From assembly GCA_964597545.1 (NCBI GenBank), contig CAZQXN010000001.1, forward strand, positions 5,655 to 69,654: a DNA stretch of 64,000 bases. Direction: 5' to 3'. The translations under genes and the position numbers were made by a program. The notes beneath the pieces were generated by a model. The model saw nothing but the letters and a program-made list of their open reading frames with translations, was not told the DNA's origin and ran no database searches. Positions 1-58,626 of the stretch are shown here, one piece after another. This DNA is from an uncultured Planctomycetia bacterium (GTDB lineage Bacteria; Omnitrophota; Gorgyraeia; 1-14-0-20-64-10). The stretch's first letter is position 1, and each line of letters begins with the position of its first letter.

Positions 1-47
1 CCTCCAGGTTCGAAGCCTGTCACTCTATCCAATTGAGCTACGGGCGC
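1..47 (-). tRNA. partial tRNA (5' portion; 3' part lies beyond window start), possibly tRNA-Arg(UCG)
   Basis: Revcomp reads GCGCCCGUAGCUCAAUUGGAUAGAGUG-ACAGG-CUUCGAA-CCUGG: acceptor 5' strand, D-arm, anticodon stem-loop with UCG. Closely resembles the E. coli tRNA-Arg D-arm. Truncated by the window edge. Confidence 0.4.
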
Positions 48-2998: not shown

Positions 2999-3043
2999 AT
3001 GGTAACTGTGTATTATAGACCTGACCTGGGGGCCATGCAAGGG

Positions 3044-40571: not shown

Positions 40572-40651
40572 CGCTCTCTTACTCCCTCCTAACACCCGGT
40601 ACCGGGTACAGTTGTTAACAGCTGTGGATAAGTGTACCCGGTACCATGGTT

Positions 40652-43600: not shown

Positions 43601-43909
43601 GATGTCGGTACCGTCCTTGAAGATGGCGTAGACAAAGGAAAGGCCAAAGAAGGAGTAGCCCCGGACCACCTTTACCTTTGGAGCTGCAATCATGGAGCTG
43701 ACAATCGGATAGGTCAACTGATCTTCCACCAGGTCCGGAGAGCGCCCGGGCCATTCGGTAAAGACGATCACTTGGACATCTGAGAGATCCGGGATCGCAT
43801 CCAAGGGAGTGTTGCGGACCGACCACACCCCCCAACCGATGGCGACAATCGTCCCCAACAGAACGAAGAAGCGGTTTTTACTGCACCAGGCAATGAGTTT
43901 TTCAATCAT
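40652..43909 (-). CDS. heavy-metal efflux RND transporter (CusA/CzcA family)
   Basis: 1085 aa HME-RND pattern (AcrB/CzcA family N-terminus MIEKLIAW...). Confidence 0.9.
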
Positions 43910-43914
43910 GGCGA

Positions 43915-45039: not shown

Positions 45040-46342
45040 CGTTTCCCCCCTGCGCATTAAGATCCATTCCGACAGCGCGCTCGAGTGCCGCAAACTGCTG
45101 TGCGGTGTCCGTATAGGCGCGCCAGTAGGTCAGTTGAGCGTTGAGCCACACCCGTTCGCCCTCGAGCAGGTTCAAAAAATCAGACTCCCCTGCTTGATAG
45201 GCCGCCTCTGCGGCATCTAAGACCTGCTCTGCTTGGGGAATAACCGCAGTCTTATACAGGGAGACAAGATTCCGGGCCGTTTCCCACCGCACATACGCAT
45301 CCGCCACTTCAAACTCCGCGGCATTCTCCAGTTGGCGCACCTGAGCCTCAGAGGAAGCGGCTTGGGCCTTGGCTTCATCTACGTTGGCACGCAAGCGCTT
45401 CTCCCAAATCGGAAGATTAAACTTAAAGGTGACGTTCCACGCATCGGTTCCATCATCCGCAGAGGAGGTGCTGCCTCCTCCGATGTCCATGTAATTGAAG
45501 CCAGCGGTCAAATCCGGAAAGCGCCGCCGCTTGGCCAGCCGCACCTGTGTCTCGTCCCGCCGGAGACGGTGCTGACCCGCAAGAACTTCTTGGCGGTGAT
45601 CCCGGGCCATCTGCTGGAGCTCCTCCAAAGAAAAAGCAAGGGCCGGCAGCGCAAAGATGCTGGGGGAGTCCATGGGGGCATTCTCCGGGCGGTCCAATAG
45701 GGCGTTCAGCTGAGCTTGGACGGTGGCAGCCTGCTGCTTTAAGCTCAGCAACCGGTCTATCGCCCGAGAAATCTCCACCTGCGCCTTGGAGACATCCTGG
45801 CTGCGACCCCCATGGGCTGCGAAGTGAGACCGAGCCACCTGCTCCAAGTGCTCGAGCAGGGTCTTGTCCTGTTCAGTAATCTCGATGGCGTTGCGGATCC
45901 AAAAGAGCTCGTAATACGTCTGTTTCACCTGCGCGAGGATCTCCTGTTCGGTCGCCCGGTAGAGTTGTCCCAGTGCCTTGGCCTCTTCGGCAGCCACCTG
46001 GCTCCGATCAGACAACTTGCCTGGAAAGGGCAGCTTTTGGCTGATCCCGAAGGCTTGCTCCTGCGGACCAACCCGCGTCTGCACCTCTTCACCAAAATAG
46101 GTGTAGCTCACCACCGGATCCTCCAGCCAGCCGACCTGCGCACCCTTCTCTCGAGCCGCCTGCCACTGGGCTCTGGCCGCTTGAATTTGAGGATTGTTGT
46201 CTCTGGCCTCATCCAACAGCGCTTCAATTGAGCCCTTCTGGGGCAGAGGGGCCTCTCCCCCTGCCTCAGCCGAAACAGCTGGGGCGAAGGCCGCATGGGC
46301 CAAACCCAATAACGCCAGCGCCGAGAAGAACAATCGCATCAC
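45023..46342 (-). CDS. outer-membrane efflux protein (TolC/CusC family)
   Basis: Signal peptide and two OEP repeats. Confidence 0.8.
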   Translation of the reverse strand: MMRLFFSALALLGLAHAAFAPAVSAEAGGEAPLPQKGSIEALLDEARDNNPQIQAARAQWQAAREKGAQVGWLEDPVVSYTYFGEEVQTRVGPQEQAFGISQKLPFPGKLSDRSQVAAEEAKALGQLYRATEQEILAQVKQTYYELFWIRNAIEITEQDKTLLEHLEQVARSHFAAHGGRSQDVSKAQVEISRAIDRLLSLKQQAATVQAQLNALLDRPENAPMDSPSIFALPALAFSLEELQQMARDHRQEVLAGQHRLRRDETQVRLAKRRRFPDLTAGFNYMDIGGGSTSSADDGTDAWNVTFKFNLPIWEKRLRANVDEAKAQAASSEAQVRQLENAAEFEVADAYVRWETARNLVSLYKTAVIPQAEQVLDAAEAAYQAGESDFLNLLEGERVWLNAQLTYWRAYTDTAQQFAALERAVGMDLNAQGGNDESAS

Positions 46343-46608
46343 TGCACAAATCGGTGAATGGTTTCCATGAGTTCATCCACCTTCTGCGTTCCGCCGCGAC
46401 CCTTGATTGCTTGGGAAACACAGTGATCCACATGGCCCCGCATGACCTTAAGGGACACCTCATCCACAGCCCGCCGGATGGCAGTCAGCTGCTGAATGAT
46501 ATCGATGCAGTAGCGCTGTTCCTGGATCATGCGCGCCACCCCTCGTACCTGACCCTCAATTCGATTGAGCCTTACCTCTACCCCTGTATGCTTAGCACCT
46601 TTTGGCAT
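46339..46608 (-). CDS. CsoR/RcnR-family metal-sensing transcriptional repressor
   Basis: 89 aa, DUF156 pattern with C-H-C ligand positions. Upstream of the efflux operon. Confidence 0.8.
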   Translation of the reverse strand: MPKGAKHTGVEVRLNRIEGQVRGVARMIQEQRYCIDIIQQLTAIRRAVDEVSLKVMRGHVDHCVSQAIKGRGGTQKVDELMETIHRFVQ

Positions 46609-46703
46609 GGTCTCCTCCTATACTCACCCCCAGTATGCCATACTCCGGGGGGGTATGTCAAGTGCAAAAATAAAAAAGCCGGAAACACGGCTTGCTGCCA
46701 GTT

Positions 46704-46741
46704 GGGCGTTTTGGCTCGTTTTGCTAGCACCCCGTTAGCAC
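46704..46741. repeat. GGGCGTTTTGGCTCGTTTTGCTAGCACCCCGTTAGCAC motif copy 1 (tandem TAGCAC half-sites)
   Basis: Near-identical to sequences at 48032-48069 and 58398-58422, which lie inside the ends of the integrated element. Confidence 0.6.
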
Positions 46742-46782
46742 AGGCCAGCATCCTTACTGAATAACCAGGGGGTACTCCATTT

Positions 46783-47823
46783 TCAAAAATACTTTCGCCT
46801 GAACCAAAGCGCGACGGCTACGAGACTGATCAAAATGGGAACCTCCACAAGTGGACCAATCACGGCTGCAAACGCTACCCCAGAATGAACACCGAATACC
46901 GCTACGGCTACCGCGATAGCAAGCTCGAAGTTATTGCTCGCCGCAGTAAAGGAGAGTGTGGCCGACTGGCCGTAAGAAGCGCCAATCTTCTTGCTCATGA
47001 AAAAGGAGATCAGGAACATCACGACGAAATAAATGAGCAGTGGAACTGCGATCCGAACGACATCCAACGGAATTCTGACGATGGTATCCCCTTTCAGAGA
47101 AAACATCACGACAATCGTAAACAGCAGCGCGATGAGCGTGATGGGGCTAATCGTCGGGATGAAGCGCGTCTCGTACCAAACCTTGCCCTTCGCTTTGAGT
47201 AGAACGAAGCGCGTCAAGGCACCCGCAAGGAATGGAATGCCCAGATAGATGAAAACGCTTTGGGCGATCTGGACAATCGTGATGTCGACAACCGCGCCTT
47301 GCAGGCCGAACCAACGCGGCAGGATCGTGATAAAAACCCAGGCGTAAAGTGAGAAGAAAAGCACCTGAAAGATCGAGTTGAACGCCACAAGCCCCGCACA
47401 ATATTCCGTATCCCCTTCGGCGAGCTCATTCCACACGATGACCATCGCAATGCAGCGGGCGAGACCAATCAGGATGAGCCCAATCATATATTCCGGATAA
47501 CCTCGGAGGAACAGGATCGCCAGCGCAAACATCAGGACAGGACCAATCACCCAGTTCTGGACCAGGGACAGGAGCAGGACTTTAGTGTTTTTGAACACAT
47601 CGCCAAGTTCTTCGTATTTCACCTTGGCGAGGGGTGGATACATCATGAGAATGAGGCCAACCGCGATCGGGACATTGGTCGTGCCCACCTGAAACTTGCT
47701 CCAAAAACCAACGACCGGCGGATAGAAATATCCGGCTGCGACGCCGACACCCATGCCCAGAAAGATCCAGAGCGTCAAAAACCGGTCTAGGAACGAAAGT
47801 TGTTTCTTGCCGCATCGACTCAT
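46783..47823 (-). CDS. ACR3-family arsenite efflux transporter
   Basis: 346 aa, about 10 TM helices, ACR3 signature region ([14 protein letters not shown]). Confidence 0.85.
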
Positions 47824-47889
47824 GAATCTCTCCTGTTAAAGACCGAAAGCATTCCCATGTGGGTTGGCGGTATTGCAACACAAAGGCGA

Positions 47890-47931
47890 AGCCGGCGACA
47901 GGAGTCGAACCTGCGACCCGCGCATTACGAA
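47890..47931 (-). pseudogene. 3' fragment of a tRNA-Thr(CGU) gene (anticodon loop to 3' end), displaced by the insertion
   Basis: Revcomp UUCGUAAUGCGCGGGUCGCAGGUUCGACUCCUGUCGCCGGCU. Pairs perfectly with the 5' half at 58519-58567. Confidence 0.7.
47914..47931. repeat. 18-bp direct repeat CGACCCGCGCATTACGAA (left att core)
   Basis: Identical copy at 58519-58536. Confidence 0.8.
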
Positions 47932-48031
47932 ATCCCCTTGGTATTTTAACGGTCTTTGCTGGTGTTGCGTAATGGTTTCTGCTGGTAGGAGTTAGGGGAA
48001 AGTGGTTTTGCTGCTGGTTGCTGGTGTTTCA

Positions 48032-48069
48032 GGGTGTTTTGGCTTGTTTTGTTAGCACCCTGTTAGCAC
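48032..48069. repeat. GGGTGTTTTGGCTTGTTTTGTTAGCACCCTGTTAGCAC motif copy 2 (tandem TGTTAGCAC), ~100 bp inside the left element end
   Basis: Direct-orientation copy of the motif at 58398-58422. Candidate integrase arm-type site. Confidence 0.6.
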
Positions 48070-48076
48070 GGGAAGA

Positions 48077-48472
48077 TTACCGCTCGGGCTGTCCTTCTTC
48101 CTTCTCTGGAGCCCTATATCGGGAAACTATTTTGGCGCCTTCCTTGTAGGCTTTATCGTGGTCAGAACTTATATAGAAAAGCACAGCATCCTCCATTGAG
48201 TGCTGTTCTGAACTACAAAAACTACAGTTTGGGACAATCACTGTCTTTGCGCAGTCTCTGCAGAGAATAAAAAGACTCCTAACTCCCTTCTGCCCGCGAG
48301 GGAAGCTTTTAAATGGGGAAAGTTCATGCTTCAGTTGCTCCCCTATTACGTGTCCCGAATCACTTTTTAGGAAGCGTTTTAACTTCTCAGCTTCTTTGAC
48401 TTGAACTGCATCTTTTGAATCGTGGGCTGCTTGAAATTCGGGATGTTCGTGAACTGAGGGACAACCGCCCAT
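48077..48472 (-). CDS. hypothetical protein (131 aa, Cys-containing), AT-rich cargo gene
   Basis: No recognisable family. Contains CRDC...CSFC. Translationally coupled (TGATG) to the upstream gene. GC content is well below the genome background. Confidence 0.45.
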   Translation of the reverse strand: MGGCPSVHEHPEFQAAHDSKDAVQVKEAEKLKRFLKSDSGHVIGEQLKHELSPFKSFPRGQKGVRSLFILCRDCAKTVIVPNCSFCSSEQHSMEDAVLFYISSDHDKAYKEGAKIVSRYRAPEKEEGQPER

Positions 48473-48927
48473 TACCTGTTGGCGAAACGGGACCTGACCT
48501 TCTCAAGAAGATTCTGGTCAACTCGAATCTTCTTCTCAGAATCAAGCTCGATACCGTATTGCCTCTCCGCATTCGCACAGTAGTTGCTGTAGTGTTCTAT
48601 TAAACGAGCAAATGGTGGGCAATTGTTGAGGATGAGTACATAGAAATCAACATTGACATCATTCTCACAAAATGCCAGAAAGTTATAGGTTTCTTTATAG
48701 CAATCTAGCTGGAATTTATCCCGGGCCTTGAGGTCTTTTAGTTTGGCAAGCGACATCTGGAGTTCGTTAAAGGCTTCGTAGCAGTGTTCGGAACTTTCAC
48801 CTATTTTCCTGATTCGAATTTCCTGTTCCCAGCGCTTGACATCTTTTTCAAGTTGCTCAACGTCGATCTTAAATTCTCTTACCTTGCTCTTAACAGCCCT
48901 CTCTTGAACATTGAGCATGGTTGACAC
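48472..48927 (-). CDS. hypothetical protein (151 aa), AT-rich cargo gene
   Basis: No recognisable family. First gene of a two-gene cassette between the element tRNA and the left att site. Confidence 0.45.
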   Translation of the reverse strand: MSTMLNVQERAVKSKVREFKIDVEQLEKDVKRWEQEIRIRKIGESSEHCYEAFNELQMSLAKLKDLKARDKFQLDCYKETYNFLAFCENDVNVDFYVLILNNCPPFARLIEHYSNYCANAERQYGIELDSEKKIRVDQNLLEKVRSRFANR

Positions 48928-49026
48928 CCTCCTTTCTTCTGTGCCATGGAGACTTAGGTGGCGAATCCCATAGATAAGTATACCTGATGAACTATCGCGA
49001 GGAGCTACACGTATATTATATCAAAA

Positions 49027-49100
49027 AAGCCGCCGAGAGGAATCGAACCTCCGACCCGTCGCTTACGAAGCGACTGCTCTACCAAACTGAGCTACGGCGG
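49027..49100 (-). tRNA. tRNA-Thr(CGU), intact, element-borne
   Basis: GCCGCCGUAGCUCAGUUUGGUAGAGCAGUCGCUUCGUAAGCGACGGGUCGGAGGUUCGAUUCCUCUCGGCGGCU forms a perfect 74-nt cloverleaf. Sequence differs from the split host copy in the anticodon and T stems. Lies 11 bp downstream of int. Confidence 0.8.
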
Positions 49101-49111
49101 CGTAAGGCTGA

Positions 49112-50320
49112 TTATAGCGCGTGAGGGACAGCTAGAGCCAGATTAGGATCCGATGCGCTTTCTGACTGGAATAATTGCGCATCTAATTTCTCCCCTGCCC
49201 CAGCTTGTGCTTCCGGAAGGAGATGTCCATATCTGTCTAGCGTTGTTTGAATAGAGGCGTGGCCAAGCTGGCTCTGGATAAACTTGGCGTGAAACCCTTG
49301 AGCAATAAGAAGGGCAGCATAGGTATGCCTGAGATCATGAAAACGAATCTTCCGAAGCCCGGCGCCGTCCAGAGCTGGCTCAAACTCTCGCCGAATCAGA
49401 TTTCGGTATTGGATAGGGGTTCCTTTGGGGGTACAAAAAACAAGCTCGTGTGGGCTTACGGGACACCGAAGGCGGTGAAGTTCGAGTGCCTCTCTCAACT
49501 TGGGGGACATAACAATGGACCTTTTAGAGCGTTTGGATTTGGGAGAGGTAAACCGCCAAAGCTCGGATCCTTCTTGGCCAAACTCCTCAGCTTCCCGTTT
49601 CCGATACCAGAAAATACTGCGTTGGACATAGATCCGATTGGCGTTCCAGGCAATATCTCCCCACTGTAACGCCTGTAGCTCTCCCACCCGCATCCCAGTA
49701 AGCACCCCTGACAAAAACAGGGTTCTATAAGGTTCATCAGAGTGTCTCAGCAATAAGCGGATCTCGTCGGGCGAAAGATAGGCCATTTCTTTCTGCTCAA
49801 CCCTGGCATGTTTAATATCCTGGGCGGGATTCTCCCGTAGATACCCCCATTGCTTGGCACACTTCAAGATATGCTTCAGAAGAACCAGTGTTTTGTTAAT
49901 TGTTGCAGGAGCGTTTGGCTTTTCTCTGATCGATTTTGCCATGTACGCCTGAATCTGATCCGGAGCGATGTCCACCAGGCGTTGCGAGCCAAAGACGGGA
50001 TCCAAATGCCACCTGACGATGCCTCGGTATGCCCTGTAGGTAAGGGGCTTAACCCGGGCAGAAACGTAGTCCTTGAGCCATCTCCGTGCGAAGTCGTCGA
50101 AGGTGATGTGCCGGATTGACCGGTAGGAGCCGGAATGAACCTGAGCCATGATCTCGGCCAGTCGTCTTTCAGCAGTTTTCTTGCTTCGCCCAACCGCCTC
50201 CCACTTCTGACGTTTACCGACTCGGTAGGTAATGGAGTAGCCAGCCCGCGGGTGCTTGCAAGATCCCGAGGATTTGTTGCCACACTTGCGACACCGCCAG
50301 ATGATACTTCCCTGTGCCAT
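49112..50320 (-). CDS. int: tyrosine-type site-specific integrase
   Basis: C-terminal catalytic R...HDLRHTYA...LGHASIQTTLDRYGHL (R-H-R-Y). N-terminal arm-binding/SAM-like region. Confidence 0.9.
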   Translation of the reverse strand: MAQGSIIWRCRKCGNKSSGSCKHPRAGYSITYRVGKRQKWEAVGRSKKTAERRLAEIMAQVHSGSYRSIRHITFDDFARRWLKDYVSARVKPLTYRAYRGIVRWHLDPVFGSQRLVDIAPDQIQAYMAKSIREKPNAPATINKTLVLLKHILKCAKQWGYLRENPAQDIKHARVEQKEMAYLSPDEIRLLLRHSDEPYRTLFLSGVLTGMRVGELQALQWGDIAWNANRIYVQRSIFWYRKREAEEFGQEGSELWRFTSPKSKRSKRSIVMSPKLREALELHRLRCPVSPHELVFCTPKGTPIQYRNLIRREFEPALDGAGLRKIRFHDLRHTYAALLIAQGFHAKFIQSQLGHASIQTTLDRYGHLLPEAQAGAGEKLDAQLFQSESASDPNLALAVPHAL

Positions 50321-50377
50321 ATCAATGGTCTCCTTGGCAATCAGAGAAAGTATAACATAAATAGTCCCAGTTGGGAC

Positions 50378-50587
50378 TTATTTCTTCTTGGAAGGGCGCC
50401 CTTTCTTTCTGGGGAGAGACAGATACTTCTTCAACGATCCAGCACTGATTAACCAAATATCTCCTGCCTTCCGCCCATCTATCTTTCTCGAAGAAGCTAG
50501 GCGGACAAGATGTCGGCGGGAAATGCGGAAGCGCTGCTCTGCCTCTGGTGCTGTAAGTACCAGGCGAATAGGGGAACGAACGTTCAT
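50378..50587 (-). CDS. small HTH DNA-binding protein (excisionase-like)
   Basis: 69 aa with HTH_17-like ISRRHLVRLASSRKIDGRKAGDIWLI and a basic C-terminal tail. Confidence 0.45.
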   Translation of the reverse strand: MNVRSPIRLVLTAPEAEQRFRISRRHLVRLASSRKIDGRKAGDIWLISAGSLKKYLSLPRKKGRPSKKK

Positions 50588-50592
50588 AGCTG

Positions 50593-50799
50593 TTATGATA
50601 CGTCATCTTCCGCGCAGTTTCCATCAGCCCCGTTCCTACGGAAGAAAGCCAGGACCTCCTGCGGATCGAACCTCACATACTTACCCACTTTGATGAATGG
50701 AATGGCAGACGATCCCAGCCGAGTACGCTGATAAATCCAGGTAGCTGGAACACCTAAAATCCGGGCCAACTCCTTCACATCTATCCATCTTTCCATCAT
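50593..50799 (-). CDS. AlpA/Xis-family phage transcriptional regulator/excisionase
   Basis: IDVKELARILGVPATWIYQRTRLG...FIKVGKYVRFDPQEV is the AlpA/HTH_17 pattern. Confidence 0.6.
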   Translation of the reverse strand: MMERWIDVKELARILGVPATWIYQRTRLGSSAIPFIKVGKYVRFDPQEVLAFFRRNGADGNCAEDDVS

Positions 50800-51401
50800 C
50801 GCCTCGCAGATCTTTTCCGAGTGGCTCCTTCTGGTGAACGGTATGTTCTATCAGGAGCAAGAAGTTGGCTGAGGGTTTGGCTCATGGTTTCTTCTCTCTT
50901 GGCTCTCACTTTGAGATCAGGGTCTTTTATAGTTCGGGAAACGCTCGTTCTCTGTCGGAATTTCTCGGCACCCTTGTGGGGTGGTTTTTCTGACACACAC
51001 CTACTCGCATCCCTTCGCACCCCCTTTTGGAGATATGTGACGGAGTTTTTCCGCAGCATATCGATGGACAGAGCGACCTGATAGTATCGGATGAAACCCC
51101 GATCTGTATTTCTCCACCAGAATTTGACTAGCCCACATTTCGCCAGGAAGGTACATGCTTCGCCGATCGTGTCCCGGCACAATCCCGTTTCGTGTTCGAT
51201 TCTCCTCCTGCCAATTCTGCCGTTTCCTGTCGTCCAGTTGGCATATTTCTGGAGACAGGAAAACACCAGGTAAATGCTGCCCCCTTTCCTCTGCATAAAA
51301 ATGCCAGATTCCCAAACCCAGTAGGGGATGCGAATGGTTCTTTCGTGTGGCTGTTTTCGCAATTTTTCCTCATCTCCCAATGGGGTATTCTTACCGTTCA
51401 A
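50796..51401 (-). CDS. winged-helix protein, possibly replication-initiator-like (hypothetical)
   Basis: wHTH-like segment (GLCRDTIGEACTFLAKCGLVKF). Sits between the xis-like and downstream genes. Confidence 0.35.
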   Translation of the reverse strand: MNGKNTPLGDEEKLRKQPHERTIRIPYWVWESGIFMQRKGGSIYLVFSCLQKYANWTTGNGRIGRRRIEHETGLCRDTIGEACTFLAKCGLVKFWWRNTDRGFIRYYQVALSIDMLRKNSVTYLQKGVRRDASRCVSEKPPHKGAEKFRQRTSVSRTIKDPDLKVRAKREETMSQTLSQLLAPDRTYRSPEGATRKRSARR

Positions 51402-51687
51402 ACACGTAATCCTTGAGGGTTCGGTAGGCGTCCGTCAGCTTTTTGGCTTCAATCCGCCCACCGTTGTAGAACCCCAGGGCAATCTCCCTTGCGCTAAATC
51501 CTTCAAAGATAACTGAGACCTTTCTCCCCTCCCGAACTTTCCCTGTAAGCTTCAGCCCCTTGCATAAGCAGAAAGCCGCCTCATAAAGATTTTGGGTGGT
51601 ATGAACTTCTGGTGGACTTATTTGGGAGTGCACTCTTTGGTCCTCATTTATCTCCCTTCTTCTTAAAAAATAAAAACCCGCAATCAA
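51391..51687 (-). CDS. hypothetical protein
   Basis: 98 aa with no recognisable motifs. Confidence 0.3.
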   Translation of the reverse strand: MIAGFYFLRRREINEDQRVHSQISPPEVHTTQNLYEAAFCLCKGLKLTGKVREGRKVSVIFEGFSAREIALGFYNGGRIEAKKLTDAYRTLKDYVFER

Positions 51688-51771
51688 CAGTTTTTCCGTT
51701 GTGCGGGTTCCACTCTAGTTAAATGTCACCTAGAACTCTAGGTCGAATATGTCAGAACATTTGAATAGGTC

Positions 51772-52464
51772 CTAACTCATTTCTTTAGAAGCTCTTATGT
51801 CGCGCTTGGCTCGCTCAAGATAGCTGTCGTAGTTCAAATACGAAGGGGAAATTTCTGCCTTACTCATCAGCTGCTTACGGATGAAACTGTCTGCGTGACC
51901 CAATTTCCTTAGGATGTAAGCCTGATAGCGGCTAAACTGTGAGTCCATGCGGGGCTTACCTCGCTTAATCTTGTAGGCACGCCGAACTCTTTTGAGATGA
52001 TCCCCGATTATTGCCTGTATCACACCGATTGGCCGGGTTGGATCAATGGCATATACAATTCTCTCGGGCGCTCCCGATAGCTGTTTCCGACGAGCAAGGG
52101 ACATCCTTGGTGACGCGTTGAGTCCATCTTCTTCATATGTGCGAGTCAACTCTGTGTGGATCATCACCGCGTCCGTCCTAAATGCTGCCGTAAGCATCGC
52201 GGTGAAAGCAGAGGATGGCCAAGCAATCTTGGGATCATCCAAGGGATAGAAACCCCAGAGCTGCGTTACATGTTCTCGAAATTCGTCCTTGGGCTGTTCA
52301 GAGGTAAGAATCGTTTCGCCAGGAGGTGGATAAGGAGGTAGAGAGGCTCTGTGTTTACGCATTTTCATGAAGTCTGCCTTATATTCCGGCAACTTTCTGA
52401 CCCAGTTCCATGTTTTTTGGATTTGTTGGGTTATTTCTCTAGAAGTATAAACTTTGACTGCCAC
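51772..52464 (-). CDS. hypothetical protein (230 aa)
   Basis: Long ORF with coding-like composition and no assignable domain. Confidence 0.4.
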   Translation of the reverse strand: MAVKVYTSREITQQIQKTWNWVRKLPEYKADFMKMRKHRASLPPYPPPGETILTSEQPKDEFREHVTQLWGFYPLDDPKIAWPSSAFTAMLTAAFRTDAVMIHTELTRTYEEDGLNASPRMSLARRKQLSGAPERIVYAIDPTRPIGVIQAIIGDHLKRVRRAYKIKRGKPRMDSQFSRYQAYILRKLGHADSFIRKQLMSKAEISPSYLNYDSYLERAKRDIRASKEMS

Positions 52465-52497
52465 AATCTCTCCTCATCTGGTGAAACAAGCGTGGAA

Positions 52498-52785
52498 TTA
52501 CTGTGTACCCGAGTAGCGCAAACCGTTGCCCACCGCCCCTATCGCATTCTCATCAGAGGCCGAACCCGCTACAAGCTCCTCCAACGTAAGACCACTGCTG
52601 TGCTGCAGCTTCGCCGGCATCATTTTCTTGACGATTTCGAGTGCTACACGGACTCTGGCCGCTTCGCTCACACGTTGGTTGCTCAAGTAGCCTAGGACGA
52701 TAGGAACGGCCCGGTCCCAGAGCTTTTTACTGTCCCGTTCTTTATCCCATGACTTGCGCCCTGATCGGCCTTTGATTCCAGCCAT
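52498..52785 (-). CDS. hypothetical protein (95 aa)
   Basis: ORF with basic N-terminus. Confidence 0.3.
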   Translation of the reverse strand: MAGIKGRSGRKSWDKERDSKKLWDRAVPIVLGYLSNQRVSEAARVRVALEIVKKMMPAKLQHSSGLTLEELVAGSASDENAIGAVGNGLRYSGTQ

Positions 52786-53071
52786 ATTAAAATCCCCTAA
52801 CCACTATTGTATCGTGAAGTTACGCCGAATGCCCAGACTTATGTCTACTTCTTGTATAGCGCGCTGGGCTGCCGTTGGGGGAATTGTGGCCAGCTTGGGA
52901 AGGCCGCGGGCAAGAAGAAAACGCGGGATGGCCCTAGGGATCTGCGCTTAGGGGACCCATGAATGGAAAGCTCCTAGGAGAATTAAGGCAGGCGCGACAA
53001 CCGAAGGGGGCGAAAAAGTCCGCCCGGAGGAAATAGCGAGTGAGGGGAAGGTGGTGATCGCTTAATGCGAT

Positions 53072-53377
53072 CTATTCGATCTTTTCGTCGTCTGGGTGCG
53101 GACCGTCTATCAAAAGGTCATTTAGCTTTTCTCCGCCATATTTGCGAACCCACTTGTGCCACTGCAGACTTGCCCTTTTATGTCCCTTCGAGAGACCAAC
53201 AAACCACGCGGCGAGCCCAGCCGCGATCATTCCAAGAAACTTGTCGCTGGCTCCGTCCCCTGCCAATTCGAGACAAACACCGAATCCGATCACTGCGAGA
53301 ATAACCAACCCCCATTTGAAGATCGTGACCCACTCACGGGTTTTTTCTTCTATTTCGCTGGATCGGTGCTTTCCCAT
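53072..53377 (-). CDS. small membrane protein (hypothetical)
   Basis: Two predicted TM helices. Confidence 0.35.
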   Translation of the reverse strand: MGKHRSSEIEEKTREWVTIFKWGLVILAVIGFGVCLELAGDGASDKFLGMIAAGLAAWFVGLSKGHKRASLQWHKWVRKYGGEKLNDLLIDGPHPDDEKIE

Positions 53378-53625
53378 CTTCCGAACGAAACCACCTTTCC
53401 GTCTTTCAGTTCAACGTAGTAGGGGGTCGAAAAACTCCCGCCTTCATAGAGATCGTAATTCATGTATTCCGTCTCATCTTGCAGACCCCTCCCGGCCGGC
53501 GGACCGAGGATCTCAACCGCCTGCGTTCTCGTCATCCCGATTTCAAGCTGATGTGTCAAGCGGGCAGACCTAGCGCACCCAACAATGAAGATTGCGACAG
53601 CCAATATGTAAGCAACTCTGCCCAT
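53350..53625 (-). CDS. putative lipoprotein (hypothetical)
   Basis: Start at MGRVAYILAVAIFIVGCA, a signal peptide with a lipobox-like VGC. Confidence 0.4.
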   Translation of the reverse strand: MGRVAYILAVAIFIVGCARSARLTHQLEIGMTRTQAVEILGPPAGRGLQDETEYMNYDLYEGGSFSTPYYVELKDGKVVSFGRWESTDPAK

Positions 53626-53727
53626 TTTCTCTTCTCTGCCTGTGCACCCCGCATAGCCACCCCACGCTAGCCCTGCATCTGGGGACATATATTAACACGG
53701 TGTCGTGGTACCGTGGTGCCTTAAACC

Positions 53728-53967
53728 GTGCTCCTCGAGAATGGGGGTATGGCTATTCCGCGGATACGGTTGCAGTTTGCGCAGAAGCTCCGACGACTGC
53801 GTGCGAAACGAGGACTGACGCAGGAAGCGATGGCGGAGAAGGCAGGGATGGATCCTCGGTATTACCAGAGACTTGAATCAAAAAAGCCCGGTGCCGTCAA
53901 GATCGATACGATCGGCAGGATCGCGGCGGCCCTCAATACGGCACCCTCCGAACTGCTTAAGTTTTAG
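53728..53967 (+). CDS. XRE-family helix-turn-helix transcriptional regulator
   Basis: LRRLRAKRGLTQEAMAEKAGMDPRYYQRLE is the canonical HTH_XRE motif. Confidence 0.7.
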   Translation: MLLENGGMAIPRIRLQFAQKLRRLRAKRGLTQEAMAEKAGMDPRYYQRLESKKPGAVKIDTIGRIAAALNTAPSELLKF

Positions 53968-54058
53968 TCGGCGCGACCCTCTTGTTCAACTCAAAACAAA
54001 GGCGGAGAGCTGTCGGCTCCCCACCTTGGAGATTCAACGTGTTTTTCGTGGTCTTCAC

Positions 54059-55690
54059 CTAAAGCTTAGCATCAGGTGGAGGTTCCAATCGAGGCAATGC
54101 TTGCCTGATCACTTCTTCGCCAACTACCTTGACGCATTCATCCCGCCCCAGGAGGTCAAGAAGCCGTTGAATCGCCCAGTCCCGCAGTTCCTGATTATCC
54201 CCTTCCAGATGCGTGCGGAAACCGTTTACATCATCCTCGATTTCTCTTAGGACCTCTTTGCGAACAACCTCACGGTACTTCTCTGCCAACCGCGTCAACC
54301 ATGCTCGTGCGCGCGGAGGCGTCGAAGGATCGTTGACAACTTGGAGGATGTCTTGTCGGCATCTTCCGAGGTGTACTGAATGCTCTCCTTTAATCATTGA
54401 CCCGACGTGCTCAATCCCCGAACTCAGATATGCTAGGACATCTTCGTTCTCCGGATAACGCTCAAGGAGATGTACAGCGATGGGCCAAAATCCGGGTCGC
54501 GCTGCAGTCAAACTCCTAGAGATAATCTCTGCCATTTTCTCGTCTTGATCAGAAAATTCCATCAAGAGTCCACCATCCTCGACCTGATCTAGAATCTCTT
54601 GGAGATCCCAGCTGAGCCGAAAGCTCAGCGCATCAGTATCGAGACAAAGTCGGAATAACATGGTCAGAGCTTTTCGGCGATCTGCCCGAATTAATGCTTC
54701 CCAGGCGCTCCGTTGCTGAAACTGGTCGACAGGATTCCAGCACTCCTCCTTGTGGTCGGTTCTGAGGAGATCTTCTGTCAATTTAAGCCCCCTGACTGGA
54801 TCTTGCGCAAAGAGCTTCGCCGCAAGCTCATCATAATGCCAAGCATCTCCGTGCCTAGCAATGGGACGCTTGGCTTCCAGGGCCCTCCAGCAGAGCTCCG
54901 CCAGACCACCCGTCAAAGATCGTCCCAAGTGCCTCCACATTCCAACCATGTCAATGGCTGCCGCCACACCGCTGAAATCTGGACGTGCTATCGCTGTTAC
55001 CAAAACACAAAATTCTTCATCGCTCAAGGGTTCCATCCACCGACCACCCATCAGAGCTCCCCTGACATGATCCGGTGTGACTTGCCCTGCATCCAGTAAT
55101 TCCGTGGCACGCTCAACAGATCGCCGATCTGCAGGAAGGTAGCTAGTTGCCCATAGCACCGCGTAAGGATGAAGCACCCCCTGACCATAGAGCGAATCGA
55201 TCAAATCGACGATCTTCGGATCGTGTATTTTCTGCCCTGAGCAATAACTGGCGAATGCGTAGGCCCCCGTATCTGTGCGTCCAAGTTCCTGCATTTTGGC
55301 CAACCACTTCTTCCCAGTATCATGTTGTCCAAGTTGGGAAAAAAATTCCATCGCCTTCTGGGCTTCTGGACCGCACAGCCACTCAATGGTCCCCTTATCC
55401 AACTTCGCAGGATTAGCTACGGCCTCCTGGGCCAATTGACCCAATTCTTGCTGGTAGCGGTATCGCCTGCCCCTCCCCGGCTCCTCGCCATCATCCTCAA
55501 GCAGCCATTGCCCAGCCCATCGCCTAACTCGGGTCGAAAATGAGCTCTCTCCCAACAGCTGTATCAGTTGATTCAAATCCGCTACGTATTTTTCAAGTTT
55601 TTGACGGTTCACTCTCTCGCACCCCTTCCTTGAATAACCGATCGCGGAATACATCACGAGCAAGACGGATCGCTCGCGTAACCTCAGCAA
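54059..55690 (-). CDS. hypothetical alpha-helical (HEAT/ARM-like?) protein, partner of the upstream STAND NTPase
   Basis: 543 aa with no known catalytic motifs. Same strand, and overlaps the 3' end of the 909-aa gene. A GTG at 55610-55612 would leave only a 20-bp overlap. Confidence 0.5.
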   Translation of the reverse strand: MLRLRERSVLLVMYSAIGYSRKGCERVNRQKLEKYVADLNQLIQLLGESSFSTRVRRWAGQWLLEDDGEEPGRGRRYRYQQELGQLAQEAVANPAKLDKGTIEWLCGPEAQKAMEFFSQLGQHDTGKKWLAKMQELGRTDTGAYAFASYCSGQKIHDPKIVDLIDSLYGQGVLHPYAVLWATSYLPADRRSVERATELLDAGQVTPDHVRGALMGGRWMEPLSDEEFCVLVTAIARPDFSGVAAAIDMVGMWRHLGRSLTGGLAELCWRALEAKRPIARHGDAWHYDELAAKLFAQDPVRGLKLTEDLLRTDHKEECWNPVDQFQQRSAWEALIRADRRKALTMLFRLCLDTDALSFRLSWDLQEILDQVEDGGLLMEFSDQDEKMAEIISRSLTAARPGFWPIAVHLLERYPENEDVLAYLSSGIEHVGSMIKGEHSVHLGRCRQDILQVVNDPSTPPRARAWLTRLAEKYREVVRKEVLREIEDDVNGFRTHLEGDNQELRDWAIQRLLDLLGRDECVKVVGEEVIRQALPRLEPPPDAKL

Positions 55691-58322
55691 CCTCGAATCG
55701 CCCAGGACATTCCGTCACCTCCCGAACAAGCGCTCGGAGGAGTTCGATCCCCTCATCGGGACGGGCTTGAATCGTATACTCAGCAAGCACCATGGGCAGC
55801 TCATGGCGAGCCTTCTTGCTCACCTGGACATCCTCATCGTTTGACAAATTTAGCATGAGCCTAACCACACCATCCAGATAACGCCACATGTCTCCCCAGG
55901 TCATCGAGGGGCAAGTGTCCAAAGGTTCATATGATTCACTTCGCCTAAGGAAATATGAACCCATCCGATCAAACGCCCCGCTAGCTGCCTTGACCACTAA
56001 AAAACGCTGCATCAGCGGATACGATGGCTTACAAAGCTCCTGCAAGATAGCCAGTCGGTCATCGAGCAACAACGGCACCTGCGGATGTAGCGGATGGAAA
56101 GCTGGACAGAAGAGGCTGTTCGTACTGCTCAACCTGGTATTTTCATCGGGCTGCGCGAAAATACAAGAGAGACGTAGCGCTTCTGCCGAAGTTCGCCTCC
56201 TGAGAAGCAGTTGGTTGATAATCGAGACAAACTCCTGTCGAGGGCCATCTTCTATCTTTTCAACTTGGTCTGTCGAAAGCGGCTCTACGTGTTGCTTCAA
56301 AACGGCGAGGACCCGCTCTGGAACAGCACCTGCGATCAGGCGAAGTACCCGTACACTCCTCAAAAGCGCAGGCAGACTACTAAACAAACCGCGGCTACCA
56401 AACAATTCGTCCCAGAACGGCCCAATCTCCTCACTTTTCAACGTATTGAGGCGGCGCAGGAGCCGCGTTTGAGCAGGCGATTGGAGCCGCACAAAGAGTG
56501 CCAGTAGCGCTTCGGGTTTTTGACAAAACAGCCGCGTGCATAGGCGAGATGCCAAGATGGGCAGTGATACCTCTACAAAAACGCCATTAACCTTCAGGAA
56601 CCCAGCTTGTTGAAGTTTACCAACCGAATCCAAGACTTGGCCCACATCCAGATCGGGCGCAAAGAACTCACGGATGATTTTAGTTTCAGCCACAAACGAC
56701 CCTGCCACACCCACTTGGGACAGTGCCGAAAAGAGCTGTAGAACACGCAAGCGCTGTTCACCCAACTGCTTTCGGACTTGACCTTCGAATCGAACACCTA
56801 CCTTTTCGACAAGTCCACCTACCTCCCGTGTAGTAATATCCGTCTCAGCGGCAGCAAGAAGAACGCTGGGGTTTCCTCCTGCTTGCTCAACAATCCACGT
56901 CATCAACCCATAGTCAAATCGTTTGCCCGCTGCCTTCAGGAATTCCTCAGACTGCTGGAGACTCAGAGGCTCTAGCTTATGGACAAAGATGCGTTGATCG
57001 GTTCCGAACGCGGGGAGGAGTGCGTCTGAAGCCGTGGGGAGCGTGATAATGACCTTCACGTGTGACCGCGACAGAGCTTCATCAATGAACGGCCTGACGT
57101 CCTCCTCCGCTGAATCTTCAACCACAACTATGACATAAGGGCCATCTCCCTCAAATTTTTCAAGATTCCCAGGTCTAACAGACTGAGGATCATCAACAAC
57201 AATCGTTCTCAAGAGTTGGCTCCTGGTTGCTTCAAGGACGATCCGAGATTTACCGATTCCTGGAGACCCAGCAAGAACGATGGCTTTCACGGAGGAATTT
57301 TCGATAGCCCCCTTCAATTTCGCCAAGTCCCCCTCTCGCCCTATAAGAGGGATCGTTTGCCATGGTTTGGCCCTCTCGTGCTTCTCGGCAAATCGATGCC
57401 ATGAAAGACACTTTGATAAGGAGAAGAACGAGGAGCGCAAGTACGGAATGCTGTTAAGCATCGGTGCCAACTCAGCCGAACCGATCACGGCAACTTTCAC
57501 TTTCACGCTTTCAGGCTCCCCATACCCTTCCCTCACAGCTTCTTCAAGCCGTTTCTTATTCTTCGAATCGACATTGAAGTTAACGAAGAGGACATAGTTC
57601 TGAGGTTGAACACCTGTACGCTGTTGAATCTGCACCAAGGCCTTGCGGACCTTACTGCGAACGTCATTTATGACGTCACTCGGCTTTCGGCTGGAACAGT
57701 TTCGCACCTTGTACTGAAAAACGTTCAGGCCCTCTGTCAGCAGAAGCGTACTTGGCACCGCTCCATGTTCGATGTTGCGCTCCCAGGAAGCATCGATTCC
57801 GTCATCCGAAGCATTCACGTTCTCTGTAAAGTCGGGAGGAAAATTGGCCTGGCTACGAGCAGAAGCCCACGCCAGGGAGTTACACAATCGAGCAAAGTGT
57901 CTGGCAGACCATCTGCTGGTTTGGGACTGAATGTGGTCTCCGGAAATTGCGTCCCCTAGGGCAAGGTCCCTGATGATCAACCCGGTGGCTAGGTCGCTGT
58001 GCTTCCAATAAAGCGGCTTGGATACATGATAAAGAGGATGGCTGACATCCAAGGCATACTGCTTCTCTAAACCCTGCACAGATGAGACGACGAGACCATC
58101 GTCCTCCAGCTCGACAAGGGTCCTGGAAAGGTTGCCTGGATCGATCCCTAGCGCCCTTGCAAGACCACGAACAGAGCATTTCTGAGACGGGGTTGTGTGA
58201 AGATACTCCAGAGCGCGAGCACTCAGCCCTTTGACTGCTGGGTGTATCAGCTTTTTTCTATGTTGTCTTCTAGGCATCGGCATGTTGTATATTTTACAAC
58301 ACATTGCTAGTCTGTCAAGCAA
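55593..58322 (-). CDS. wHTH + PD-(D/E)xK/Mrr-like nuclease + STAND/AAA P-loop NTPase + C-terminal helical repeats (Avs-like candidate antiviral protein)
   Basis: Winged helix GLARALGIDPGNLSRTLVELEDDGLVV. Nuclease-like DDGIDA...FQYK. Walker A LAGSPGIGKS and Walker B YVIVVVEDSAEE. About 450 aa of C-terminal helical repeats. Start is ambiguous (TTG or ATG at M7/M14/M16). Confidence 0.65.
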   Translation of the reverse strand: MLDRLAMCCKIYNMPMPRRQHRKKLIHPAVKGLSARALEYLHTTPSQKCSVRGLARALGIDPGNLSRTLVELEDDGLVVSSVQGLEKQYALDVSHPLYHVSKPLYWKHSDLATGLIIRDLALGDAISGDHIQSQTSRWSARHFARLCNSLAWASARSQANFPPDFTENVNASDDGIDASWERNIEHGAVPSTLLLTEGLNVFQYKVRNCSSRKPSDVINDVRSKVRKALVQIQQRTGVQPQNYVLFVNFNVDSKNKKRLEEAVREGYGEPESVKVKVAVIGSAELAPMLNSIPYLRSSFFSLSKCLSWHRFAEKHERAKPWQTIPLIGREGDLAKLKGAIENSSVKAIVLAGSPGIGKSRIVLEATRSQLLRTIVVDDPQSVRPGNLEKFEGDGPYVIVVVEDSAEEDVRPFIDEALSRSHVKVIITLPTASDALLPAFGTDQRIFVHKLEPLSLQQSEEFLKAAGKRFDYGLMTWIVEQAGGNPSVLLAAAETDITTREVGGLVEKVGVRFEGQVRKQLGEQRLRVLQLFSALSQVGVAGSFVAETKIIREFFAPDLDVGQVLDSVGKLQQAGFLKVNGVFVEVSLPILASRLCTRLFCQKPEALLALFVRLQSPAQTRLLRRLNTLKSEEIGPFWDELFGSRGLFSSLPALLRSVRVLRLIAGAVPERVLAVLKQHVEPLSTDQVEKIEDGPRQEFVSIINQLLLRRRTSAEALRLSCIFAQPDENTRLSSTNSLFCPAFHPLHPQVPLLLDDRLAILQELCKPSYPLMQRFLVVKAASGAFDRMGSYFLRRSESYEPLDTCPSMTWGDMWRYLDGVVRLMLNLSNDEDVQVSKKARHELPMVLAEYTIQARPDEGIELLRALVREVTECPGRFEVAEVTRAIRLARDVFRDRLFKEGVRESEPSKT
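58283..58301. promoter_or_regulatory. inverted repeat TGTTGTA-tattt-TACAACA overlapping the start region of the 909-aa gene
   Basis: Perfect 7-bp arms. Candidate (auto)operator. Confidence 0.3.
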
Positions 58323-58397
58323 AAAAGTTAAAAATTTTTGTAGCGGCTGGAATATCCTAAGGGGGCAATTTTACGTCGTTCAGCGCGGGTCGGGGTG

Positions 58398-58422
58398 GGT
58401 TTTGTTAGCACCATGTTAGCAC
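58398..58422. repeat. GGGTTTTGTTAGCACCATGTTAGCAC motif copy 3, ~100 bp inside the right element end
   Basis: Same tandem TGTTAGCAC arrangement and same orientation as copy 2. Confidence 0.6.
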
Positions 58423-58518
58423 GACACCAAAAAGGCCCCGAGGCATCAGCCAAGGGACCTTCACAACCTGTTGCAATACTTCAAGAAAGAATGACGCCGC
58501 TACTCAAAAATCCCTCGC

Positions 58519-58567
58519 CGACCCGCGCATTACGAATGCGCTGCTCTACCAACTGAGCTACGCCGGC
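58519..58567 (-). pseudogene. 5' fragment of tRNA-Thr(CGU) (acceptor stem through variable loop), includes right att core 58519-58536
   Basis: Revcomp GCCGGCGUAGCUCAGUUGGUAGAGCAGCGCAUUCGUAAUGCGCGGGUCG. The sequence that follows is not tRNA-like. Confidence 0.7.
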
Positions 58568-58577
58568 TTGGAAAACC

Positions 58578-58625
58578 GGTACCGGGTACAATGTACCCGG
58601 TACCGCAATGCGGGTACCGCAATGG
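58578..58625. repeat. GGTACCGGGTACA/TGTACCCGGTACC inverted-repeat motif (copy C) plus GCAATG-CGGGTACC-GCAATG
   Basis: Same 13-bp arms occur at 40598-40610/40633-40645, 9300-9312 (plus a degenerate arm) and 63131-63144. Confidence 0.6.
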
Positions 58626-58626
58626 A

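Follow-up and report, generated by a model that had tools for sequence, protein, structure and literature searches.

An apparently lambda-type island of 10,587 bp has split the chromosomal tRNA-Thr(CGU) gene of a member of Candidatus Omnitrophota, and a tRNA-Thr(CGU) gene of its own most likely supplies the lost decoding function for as long as the island is integrated. The case is built on an insertion that does not restore its target, an empty site in a close relative, an intact cognate tRNA within the insert and an att architecture that is conserved across relatives.

The window, meaning the whole 64-kb stretch of DNA that was analysed, holds two copies of the 18-bp direct repeat CGACCCGCGCATTACGAA (+ strand), one at either end of the insert (Table 1). 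This core is the sole exact direct repeat of at least 16 nt in the window, in which ~0.03 pairs of 18-mers would be expected by chance. The two parts of the host gene, both read from the minus strand, overlap by nt 32-49 of the tRNA, from the anticodon loop to the first base of the T stem. Joining the flanks in silico over one copy of the core yields a perfect tRNA-Thr(CGU) that is called by ARAGORN, which calls no tRNA at attL, attR or the reconstructed attP. At the 5'-half junction (58492-58567) the Rfam tRNA model gives a marginal score of 30.5 bits in Infernal, against 69.7 bits for the intact tRNA-Thr(CGU) of a relative; the entire T arm is unaligned and two of the seven acceptor pairs are broken, the element DNA beyond the core having no T arm and forming the other five pairs. 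The preliminary description was thus right that the gene is split around a shared core and that neither junction gives a complete tRNA: the host is left with two dead halves, neither of them usable because the T arm is missing.

Table 1. Coordinates of the split host gene, the attachment sites and the genes of the island within the window.
Feature	Position	Strand
Host tRNA-Thr(CGU) 5' part, nt 1-49, core at its end	58519..58567	-
Core copy, 5'-half junction (CGACCCGCGCATTACGAA on + strand)	58519..58536	.
Element DNA where canonical relatives have the T arm and 3' acceptor strand; not tRNA-like	58492..58518	-
Paired arm-type sites of the P arm, GTGCTAACA-TG-GTGCTAACA; start 114 nt from the core start	58403..58422	-
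ORF (cargo), 909 aa, N-terminal MarR-type winged helix and AAA_16 P-loop (STAND-like)	55593..58322	-
ORF (cargo), 543 aa, no family match	54059..55690	-
XRE-family HTH regulator (HTH_3/HTH_31)	53728..53967	+
Six small ORFs (201, 98, 230, 95, 101 and 112 aa), no significant family matches	50796..53688	-
HTH_17 (excisionase/AlpA-type) protein, 68 aa	50593..50799	-
Second HTH_17 protein, 69 aa	50378..50587	-
Tyrosine integrase (int), 402 aa, Phage_int_SAM_3 and Phage_integrase domains	49112..50320	-
TATAAT box, 9 nt upstream of tRNA-B, overlapping the int stop codon (49114-49112)	49111..49116	-
Intact element-borne tRNA-Thr(CGU), tRNA-B	49028..49101	-
Two ORFs, 151 and 131 aa	48077..48927	-
Paired arm-type sites of the P' arm, GTGCTAACA-GG-GTGCTAACA; start 138 nt ahead of the core	48050..48069	-
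Core copy, 3'-half junction	47914..47931	.
Host tRNA-Thr(CGU) 3' part, nt 32-73, core at its start	47890..47931	-

A 97%-identical Bcp homologue led to the unoccupied site, on two metagenome contigs of a close relative (L090 and L091) that match the window at ~94% identity in the flanks. The halves are contiguous there and form one intact gene, 100% identical to window positions 58570-58519 and 47931-47890, two stretches that overlap by the core; the question whether the halves are ever contiguous in related genomes, raised in the preliminary description, is answered by this locus. A scan of GTDB for the intact tRNA junction returned four unrelated MAGs only, with no synteny. Neither the Bcp nor the integrase sequence of the window had an exact match on record.

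Judged by its genes and sites, the insert has the complete anatomy of a lambda-type integrative element, with a tyrosine integrase, adjacent excisionase-type HTH genes and paired arm sites ~100 bp inside the cores. The arm-type motif matches with zero mismatches at the two arms only, apart from one 2-mismatch relic nearby, and the chance expectation is 0. The 68-aa HTH_17 protein adjoins int throughout the integrase clade. Homology of the integrase to its closest relatives stops at 49161, so that the last ~16 codons of int are unique to this element. The protein is only ~30% identical to mycobacteriophage integrases, and its best relative in IMG/VR reaches 44% identity, the best among GenBank phages 32%.

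Related islands with integrases 60-62% identical to this one have the HTH_17-int module, the arm sites and their spacing in common with the window, and rebuild their targets: tRNA-Arg(CCU) with a 45-bp tRNA block in L018 and L180, and tRNA-Met(CAU) with a 48-bp block in L178. Two copies of GTGCTAACA occupy both arms of each, at core-to-arm spacings of 114-116/135-138 nt compared with 114/138 nt in the window. The crossover block begins at the anticodon loop in all of them, as it does in the window, but their attP carries 45-48 bp that reach the tRNA's 3' end, leaving the tRNA intact after integration, and unlike the window island they have no tRNA gene of their own. A restored target together with a displaced fragment, as in canonical tRNA-integrating islands, is thus found in these three and not in the window. 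All three agree with the anticodon-loop sublocation class described by Williams 2002.

The course of events suggested by this comparison is as follows. By means of its tyrosine integrase the island, with core copies now at its ends, would have recombined with the chromosomal tRNA-Thr(CGU), the crossover falling within nt 32-49. The attP of the rebuilding relatives carries the whole 3' half of the target tRNA, by which the target is rebuilt; that of the window matches the tRNA over 18 bp only, the ~27 nt for the T arm and acceptor strand having probably diverged in place, so that integration leaves two dead halves. The complete, sequence-distinct tRNA-Thr(CGU) with its TATAAT box just after int most likely replaces the decoding function during integration. 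The arrangement would follow the reasoning behind 'tRNA-dependent lysogeny', here in an element in which no phage genes can be recognised and which is probably still able to excise.

The carried gene, tRNA-B, scores 67.4 bits with the Rfam tRNA model, lies in the same orientation as int, is followed by a T6 run and has no encoded CCA. Of the 74 positions aligned with the host tRNA 14 are different, through changes in the acceptor stem, anticodon stem and T stem that are compensatory; the anticodon, G1-C72, C2-G71 and U73 are common to the two tRNAs. The preliminary description had correctly recognised a real, sequence-distinct tRNA close downstream of the integrase, although its coordinates (49027-49100) were one base off and the gene starts 10 nt past the last base of the stop codon instead of 11 bp. 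A TATAAT box placed as for tRNA-B, 9-14 nt upstream, precedes the chromosomal tRNA-Thr(CGU) gene at five loci in relatives. The region upstream of tRNA-B resembles the L090 promoter region in this box and a 7-mer at different spacing, and homology beyond the -10 box is not claimed. The 151-aa and 131-aa ORFs and tRNA-B form a module of ~1.05 kb, lying between int and the P' arm, with no counterpart in any relative examined, and tRNA-B itself had no exact match in IMG/VR or in any of the loci retrieved. A single-sequence AlphaFold model of the 131-aa ORF (pLDDT 41) was not used. On the preferred reading tRNA-B would be expressed and aminoacylated and would compensate for the lost host gene.

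The remainder of the island is largely anonymous. G+C is 45-54% within the insert and 56-60% outside it, and the XRE regulator is the sole + strand gene. The integrase, the two HTH_17 proteins and the XRE regulator of the preliminary description stand; the winged-helix protein that it placed at 50796-51401 is without Pfam support, the clear winged helix being the N-terminus of the 909-aa protein. Searches of Pfam, PHROGs, PADLOC, NCBIfam and PDB sequences left 12 of the 15 ORFs without a useful match. Structural, lysis and packaging genes had no matches among the island ORFs in Pfam, PHROGs and NCBIfam, and DNA similarity to phages is limited to the tRNA. The island does not, then, appear to be a temperate phage. 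Families for primase or replication, capsid redirection, relaxase, oriT and T4SS were likewise not detected in any of the 15 ORFs, although most of these are orphans and absence is not proof; the earlier label of a phage satellite or integrative mobilisable element is unsupported, no phage, replication or transfer genes having been detected.

Several observations weigh against compensation by tRNA-B. No -35 element was found for it, ACG accounts for only 15% of the Thr codons in host ORFs, and a second tRNA-Thr(CGU) or an ACG-reading UGU isoacceptor could lie outside the 64-kb window. Above all, four elements with integrases 77-81% identical (L005/L006, L010, L093 and L094) break up tRNA-Thr(CGU) at this same position, leave it unrestored and carry no tRNA of their own within the DNA examined. 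Compensation may not be obligatory because of these four, which argue against strict essentiality: the host tRNA may be dispensable, and their hosts evidently either tolerate the loss or have another copy. An apparent T-arm-less 'tRNA' reported by Infernal at the L005 and L010 junctions was rejected because what looks like its 3' acceptor strand belongs to a hairpin of the element, and GCCGGC is self-complementary. No second core, arm sites, T-loop or tRNA was found within up to 10 kb past int in L005, L006, L010, L093 or L094. The closest relatives diverge from each other just past int, and L010 and L093 are 98% identical over 4.17 kb and then unrelated. Without a detectable right end, these tRNA-less relatives may be decayed or truncated remnants, or may simply be larger elements.

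It is possible, if rather doubtful, that the island is fixed and immobile, with tRNA-B now serving as the host's working tRNA-Thr(CGU) gene, a xenologous replacement and not a reversible integration. The TATAAT box that precedes all related chromosomal copies was not found upstream of the host 5' half, which directly abuts the Bcp terminator hairpin. In L090 the gene has an encoded CCA and a terminator; both are lost from the 3' half in the window, next to which lies a metal-efflux islet of 7.2 kb. The gene reassembled by excision would therefore be one without an upstream TATAAT box. Immobility fits poorly with core copies that are identical at 18 of 18 positions, perfect arm-site pairs, intact int and HTH_17 ORFs and halves that are both still 100% identical to the intact L090 gene. 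A fixed island extends the preferred reading, compensation by the carried tRNA, and does not exclude it.

Less plausible is that tRNA-B is cargo and not a compensating device, tRNA-Thr(CGU) being dispensable (ACG read by another isoacceptor, or another copy present) and the carried gene kept for some other reason, such as translation of the element's ACG-rich genes or evasion of anticodon nucleases. ACG does make up 30% of the Thr codons in element ORFs against 15% in host ORFs, same-site relatives without a tRNA were recovered from several samples, and phage tRNAs have been proposed as a counter to tRNA-targeting defences (PMC10865867). The tRNA carried is, however, exactly the isoacceptor that the element destroys, a coincidence that accompanies non-reconstruction in a survey of actinophages, with Daredevil the one listed exception (PMC10865867), and the tRNA-less relatives, all of them without a detectable right end, may have decayed. 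An assembly artefact, a chimeric contig joined at a short repeat, is very improbable: the source is apparently a metagenome-assembled contig (208,633 bp), but both junctions lie on it in the correct orientation, an 18-bp repeat is shorter than the usual assembly k-mers, and a junction of this kind, in which a tRNA-Thr 5' half meets the same arm sites at an equal distance, recurs on independent contigs of other samples. That the halves, which together make a perfect tRNA, are a genuine split gene of the kind known from some archaea, with joining at the RNA level, is scarcely credible in a bacterium, given an 18-nt overlap that is the signature of site-specific recombination (archaeal-type halves do not overlap, have complementary leader and trailer and enclose no mobile element), an integrase element between them and a contiguous, intact gene in a close relative. 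Bacteria are not known to have the archaeal tRNA splicing endonuclease.

Compensation by the carried tRNA would extend a recently proven phage strategy, in which the target tRNA is destroyed and a replacement brought along, to a small island that is not a phage, in an uncultured phylum, and suggests that destroy-and-replace is open to tRNA-targeting integrases in general instead of being peculiar to actinophages. A single integrase clade occupies three states (rebuild, destroy and replace, destroy only) with the att architecture conserved across all three; the order of events, decay of attP or capture of the tRNA first, is therefore testable. Island finders that need a restored tRNA and a displaced fragment would miss such elements. 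Since the chromosomal gene is split and has neither TATAAT box nor encoded CCA, the island tRNA may now be the working gene, and the island may conceivably have taken over a core decoding function permanently in this Omnitrophota lineage. If so, both evolutionary steps would be documented outside phages and cultured phyla, the first an in-place decay of the tRNA-restoring segment of attP and the second the capture of a whole tRNA gene, and a route to xenologous replacement of tRNA genes would be in view, with sister elements that destroy the same tRNA without replacement.

The closest precedent is found in actinobacteriophages, in which experiments have established non-restoration combined with a cognate phage tRNA as a strategy, named 'tRNA-dependent lysogeny' (Guerrero-Bustamante and Hatfull, mBio 2024, PMC10865867). 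Fionnbharth (K4), LeBron (L1), Cain (K6), Gaia (X) and others have cores of 8-17 bp, do not reconstruct the tRNA and require their cognate tRNA for lysogeny, and close relatives with similar integrases have a 43-52-bp core and rebuild it; a carried cognate tRNA goes with non-reconstruction in all listed phages but Daredevil (PMC10865867). The window island resembles them in having a tyrosine integrase and arm-type sites, an attB that lies within a tRNA gene, a short core (18 bp) that rebuilds no tRNA, and a carried tRNA, here tRNA-Thr(CGU). It differs in its host phylum and its tRNA-Thr(CGU) target, and in having no detectable phage genes, so that 'lysogeny' does not apply; the requirement for the phage tRNA is proven in actinophages, whereas in the window the role of tRNA-B is read from sequence. 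Prophage Lj965 of Lactobacillus johnsonii inactivates a tRNA gene and carries a replacement (cited in PMC10865867), and Lo5R7ANS-like prophages of Sinorhizobium meliloti disrupt and replace tRNA-Leu(UAG) (PMC11476347). Both are alike in disrupting the gene midway and holding a cognate tRNA of foreign sequence, but they are prophages, known from bioinformatic observation, with other tRNAs and in other phyla. Gordonia phage Daredevil, with neither reconstruction nor a phage tRNA, is in the same state as L005, L010, L093 and L094, yet it forms clear plaques, as its authors predicted for such a phage (PMC10865867), whereas the relatives in Omnitrophota exist as integrated copies, which points to a tRNA that can be dispensed with there or to copies that are old remnants. 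Destroy-and-replace is thus already known, and proven for mycobacterial phages; what is new here is its occurrence in a non-phage island and in a new phylum.

The host tRNA-Thr(CGU) gene is split by an integrase-bearing insert of 10,587 bp, hereafter the island, which is bounded by two copies of the 18-bp core CGACCCGCGCATTACGAA at 47914-47931 and 58519-58536. This pair is the sole exact direct repeat of at least 16 nt in the 64-kb window, in which about 0.03 18-mer pairs would be expected by chance. On the minus strand, 58567-58519 corresponds to nt 1-49 of the tRNA and 47931-47890 to nt 32-73, and the 18 nt common to both halves reach from the anticodon loop to the first base of the T stem, marking an integrase-type insertion into tRNA nt 32-49. 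When the outer flanks are joined over a single core copy, ARAGORN calls a tRNA; it finds none at attL, at attR or in the reconstructed attP, whose predicted junction reads ...CTCAAAAATCCCTCGC-core-ATCCCCTTGGTATTTT... The 5'-half junction scores 30.5 bits with the Rfam tRNA model, barely above the threshold of 29, with the entire T arm unaligned and two acceptor pairs broken, compared to 67.4 bits for the tRNA inside the island and 69.7 bits for the split gene in its intact form in a relative. At the only junction that keeps the tRNA 5' half, the T arm and acceptor strand are lost. Repeat, joined flanks and model scores thus bear out the preliminary description, which had the gene split by the insert and neither junction yielding a complete tRNA. 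The G+C content is 45-54% within the insert and 56-60% outside it.

An unoccupied site exists in related genomes. Two metagenome contigs, L090 and L091, carry a Bcp homologue 97% identical to that of the window and share ~94% nucleotide identity with it across the ATP synthase, permease and Bcp genes. Their tRNA-Thr(CGU) is contiguous and intact (12797-12872 in L090) and matches window 58570-58519 (52 nt) and 47931-47890 (42 nt) at 100% identity, the two matches overlapping by exactly the 18-bp core. The observation thus withstands the check proposed with the preliminary description, a search for the unoccupied site in related genomes. By sequence comparison the host is a Candidatus Omnitrophota bacterium: among the 23 best matches of ATP synthase beta with an organism name (76-84% identity), 22 are from this phylum and one is a Nitrospirae MAG.

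The surroundings of the tRNA have features of their own. Between its 3' end and the flank that directly follows the tRNA in L090 lies a 7.2-kb block (40651-47889) encoding an AcrB-family RND pump, a CusB-type fusion protein with a heavy-metal-binding domain, an outer-membrane efflux protein, a CsoR-type repressor and ACR3. This block, apparently another variable islet at the same tRNA, showed neither an integrase nor a direct repeat. Its ACR3-CsoR spacer (46700-46741, minus strand) contains a relic, GTGCTAACGGGGTGCTAGCAAAACGAGCCAAAACGCCC, of the P' arm (the island end at the tRNA 3' half), and its close resemblance to the P' arm of the island (48069-48030) suggests that the locus previously housed a related element. 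In L090 (10594-12793) and L091, a 2.2-kb MNT/HepT toxin-antitoxin pair and a Fic gene lie between Bcp and the tRNA, and the Fic-tRNA linkage is also present in the more distant contig L005. The corresponding window segment (58568-58626) is without this block and, with it, without a TATAAT box upstream of the tRNA, probably through a deletion in the window lineage. One hairpin stem, GGTACCGGGTACA ... TGTACCCGGTACC, with a T run after it, occurs at 58577-58605 and 40590-40645 in the window and at 12880-12935 in L090, as a terminator both after Bcp and after the tRNA locus; this repeated terminator-like hairpin could mediate rearrangements there. Elsewhere in the window, a tRNA(CAU) gene (2658-3000, minus strand; 5' exon GCGGGGTGGAGCAGTCTGGTAGCTCGTCAGGCTCA, 3' exon ending ...GGTTCGAATCCAGGCCCCGCTA) is interrupted in the anticodon loop by a group I intron, for which the Rfam Intron_gpI match at 2735-2974 reaches 49.6 bits (gathering score 50, E = 5e-11). 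ARAGORN does not call this intron-bearing gene; intron-bearing tRNA genes of this group I type are known in cyanobacteria and some proteobacteria. The window start cuts another tRNA gene, leaving its 5' part, GCGCCCGTAGCTCAATTGGATAGAGTGACAGGCTTCGAACCTGGAGG, at 1-47 (minus strand) with the anticodon loop CTTCGAA.

All island genes but one lie on the minus strand.

Features of the island, ordered from the tRNA 5' half to the tRNA 3' half
Feature	Position	Strand	Remark
Arm-type site pair GTGCTAACA-TG-GTGCTAACA	58422-58403	-	
909-aa protein, MarR-type winged helix and AAA_16 P-loop	after first arm pair	-	
543-aa orphan	after 909-aa protein	-	
XRE regulator	after 543-aa orphan	+	
Six small orphans	after XRE regulator	-	
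Two HTH_17 (excisionase/AlpA-type) proteins	before int	-	
Tyrosine integrase (int), 402 aa	after HTH_17 pair	-	
Intact tRNA-Thr(CGU) (tRNA-B)	49028-49101	-	ARAGORN; sole tRNA called in the window
Orphan ORFs of 151 aa and 131 aa (orf151, orf131)	after tRNA-B	-	
Second arm-type site pair	48069-48050	-	
Core, then tRNA 3' half	island end	-	

With up to two mismatches, the 20-nt arm motif occurs three times in the window versus zero by chance: two perfect copies, one per arm, and a two-mismatch relic outside the element. Among the island ORFs there was no match to a phage structural, lysis, replication, relaxase or defence family, and the integrase lacks close relatives both in IMG/VR (at best 44% identical) and in GenBank phages (at best 32%). 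For these reasons the insert is best called an integrative island without an assigned mobility class, rather than a prophage or a satellite, and the earlier label of a phage-satellite-like or integrative-mobilisable-element-like insertion is left without support.

By identity, the members of this large integrase family form three groups. In distant members (31-47% identical), int is convergent on an intact tRNA 60-170 bp away, which is the textbook layout. Members at 60-62%, whose two arms both carry the arm-type motif of the window, are canonical: L018 and L180/L181 occupy tRNA-Arg(CCU) with a repeat of 45 bp, and L178/L179 occupy tRNA-Met(CAU) with one of 48 bp. [quoted passage not shown] In each of the closest relatives (77-81%; L005/L006, L010, L093 and L094), element DNA follows the 5' half of tRNA-Thr(CGU) from the same tRNA position as in the window, likewise without a T arm, so that non-restoration is a trait of the subclade and not an accident of a single integration. 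From the start of the identity block to the motif of the P arm (the island end at the tRNA 5' half), the distance is 114 nt in the window, 113-114 nt in the closest relatives and 114-116 nt in canonical members; from the P'-arm motif to the right-hand core it is 138 nt in the window and 135-138 nt in canonical members. The window attP is therefore laid out like that of its canonical relatives, from which it differs in the ~27 nt for the T arm and 3' acceptor strand, kept in length but not in sequence, so that the tRNA-restoring segment has decayed in place. On this comparative reading, non-restoration is real and derived. No tRNA gene of their own is present in the sequenced DNA of the closest relatives; since their right ends were not found and they diverge from each other just past int, these may be truncated remnants.

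An inverted imperfect core copy, TCGTTCAGCGCGGGTCG, matches at 14 of 17 positions in the P arm of the window (58376-58392, plus strand), just past the arm-type sites, and may serve the integrase as an additional binding site or be a relic. In L178/L179 (2715-2810, with repeats at +9384 and +11790), two successive copies of the tRNA-Met 3' fragment downstream of one intact tRNA-Met imply tandem elements or a leftover fragment, and a fifth arm-motif copy lies at 12221. L010 contains a c-di-GMP-I-GGC riboswitch-like sequence (4298-4379, plus strand; 56.4 bits, gathering score 59, E = 1e-10) ~110 nt past its integrase, where it departs from its 98%-identical twin L093.

The carried tRNA-B is indeed intact and distinct from the host tRNA, as first described, differing at 14 of 74 aligned positions: a compensatory acceptor-stem pair, one additional U in the D loop, an anticodon stem that differs throughout and a different T stem. 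Both share G1-C72, C2-G71, the CGU anticodon and U73, and the main bacterial ThrRS identity elements are the first two acceptor pairs and anticodon positions 35-36. With 4 of 18 positions mismatched to the core of the element, tRNA-B would be poorly targeted by the island integrase and would recombine poorly with the host halves by homology. A TATAAT box (49116-49111) lies 9 nt upstream, overlapping the int stop codon, and a T6 run follows 3'; no -35 element was matched upstream, so that tRNA-B may be co-transcribed with int. The same box lies 9-14 nt upstream of the intact tRNA-Thr(CGU) of L090/L091 and of the 5' halves in L005, L010, L093 and L094, and is missing upstream of the window 5' half, which the Bcp terminator hairpin directly precedes. 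Homology of the window int to those of its closest relatives ends at 49161, orf151 and orf131 have no homologue in any fetched locus, and in L012 the P'-arm sites directly overlap the int 3' end; tRNA-B, orf151 and orf131 therefore look like a ~1.05-kb module, putatively inserted between int and the P' arm.

We infer that tRNA-B compensates for the split gene: it would be expressed and charged and would decode ACG in its place, and the host gene would be restored on excision, in which the HTH_17 proteins would act as directionality factors. ACG accounts for 30% of Thr codons in the element ORFs (35/115; 47932-58518) versus 15% in host ORFs (70/465), in which ACC is strongly preferred (65%), so the isoacceptor is in use, which does not imply that it is indispensable. 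The existence of relatives that only destroy the gene suggests that this lineage can do without tRNA-Thr(CGU) or has another copy of it elsewhere, the genome scope here being 64 kb. With no TATAAT box, no encoded CCA and a metal-efflux islet next to its 3' half, the split gene seems to be decaying, and the island tRNA may have replaced it permanently. For the element itself, the perfect cores, perfect arm sites and intact int argue that it is young or still active. Taken together, the initial interpretation of an island that splits a tRNA and has the cognate tRNA on board is supported.

The same logic underlies 'tRNA-dependent lysogeny' (PMC10865867), in which several groups of actinophages share merely an 8-17-bp core with a tRNA attB, do not rebuild the tRNA and encode a cognate tRNA needed for lysogens, while close relatives, whose cores measure 43-52 bp, do rebuild it and have no tRNA of their own; phage Daredevil neither rebuilds a tRNA nor carries one, and the Lj965 prophage of L. 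johnsonii is also cited there. In a survey of S. meliloti, prophages inactivate tRNA-Leu(UAG) and carry a foreign replacement (PMC11476347). Of the five features of tRNA-dependent lysogeny, the fifth of which is essentiality of the host tRNA, four were assessed: the attB of the island lies within a tRNA gene, its short core does not rebuild that gene, and the element carries a cognate tRNA, but the island does not qualify as a temperate phage. It therefore works like the known system without being a case of lysogeny, and differs in its carrier, an island with no detectable phage genes, in its host phylum, Omnitrophota, and in its target, tRNA-Thr(CGU). The clade displays the whole pattern, namely canonical cousins, a member that destroys and replaces, and members that only destroy. 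The phenomenon is thus already known, and what is new is the phylum and the non-phage carrier, together with a natural comparative series within one integrase clade.
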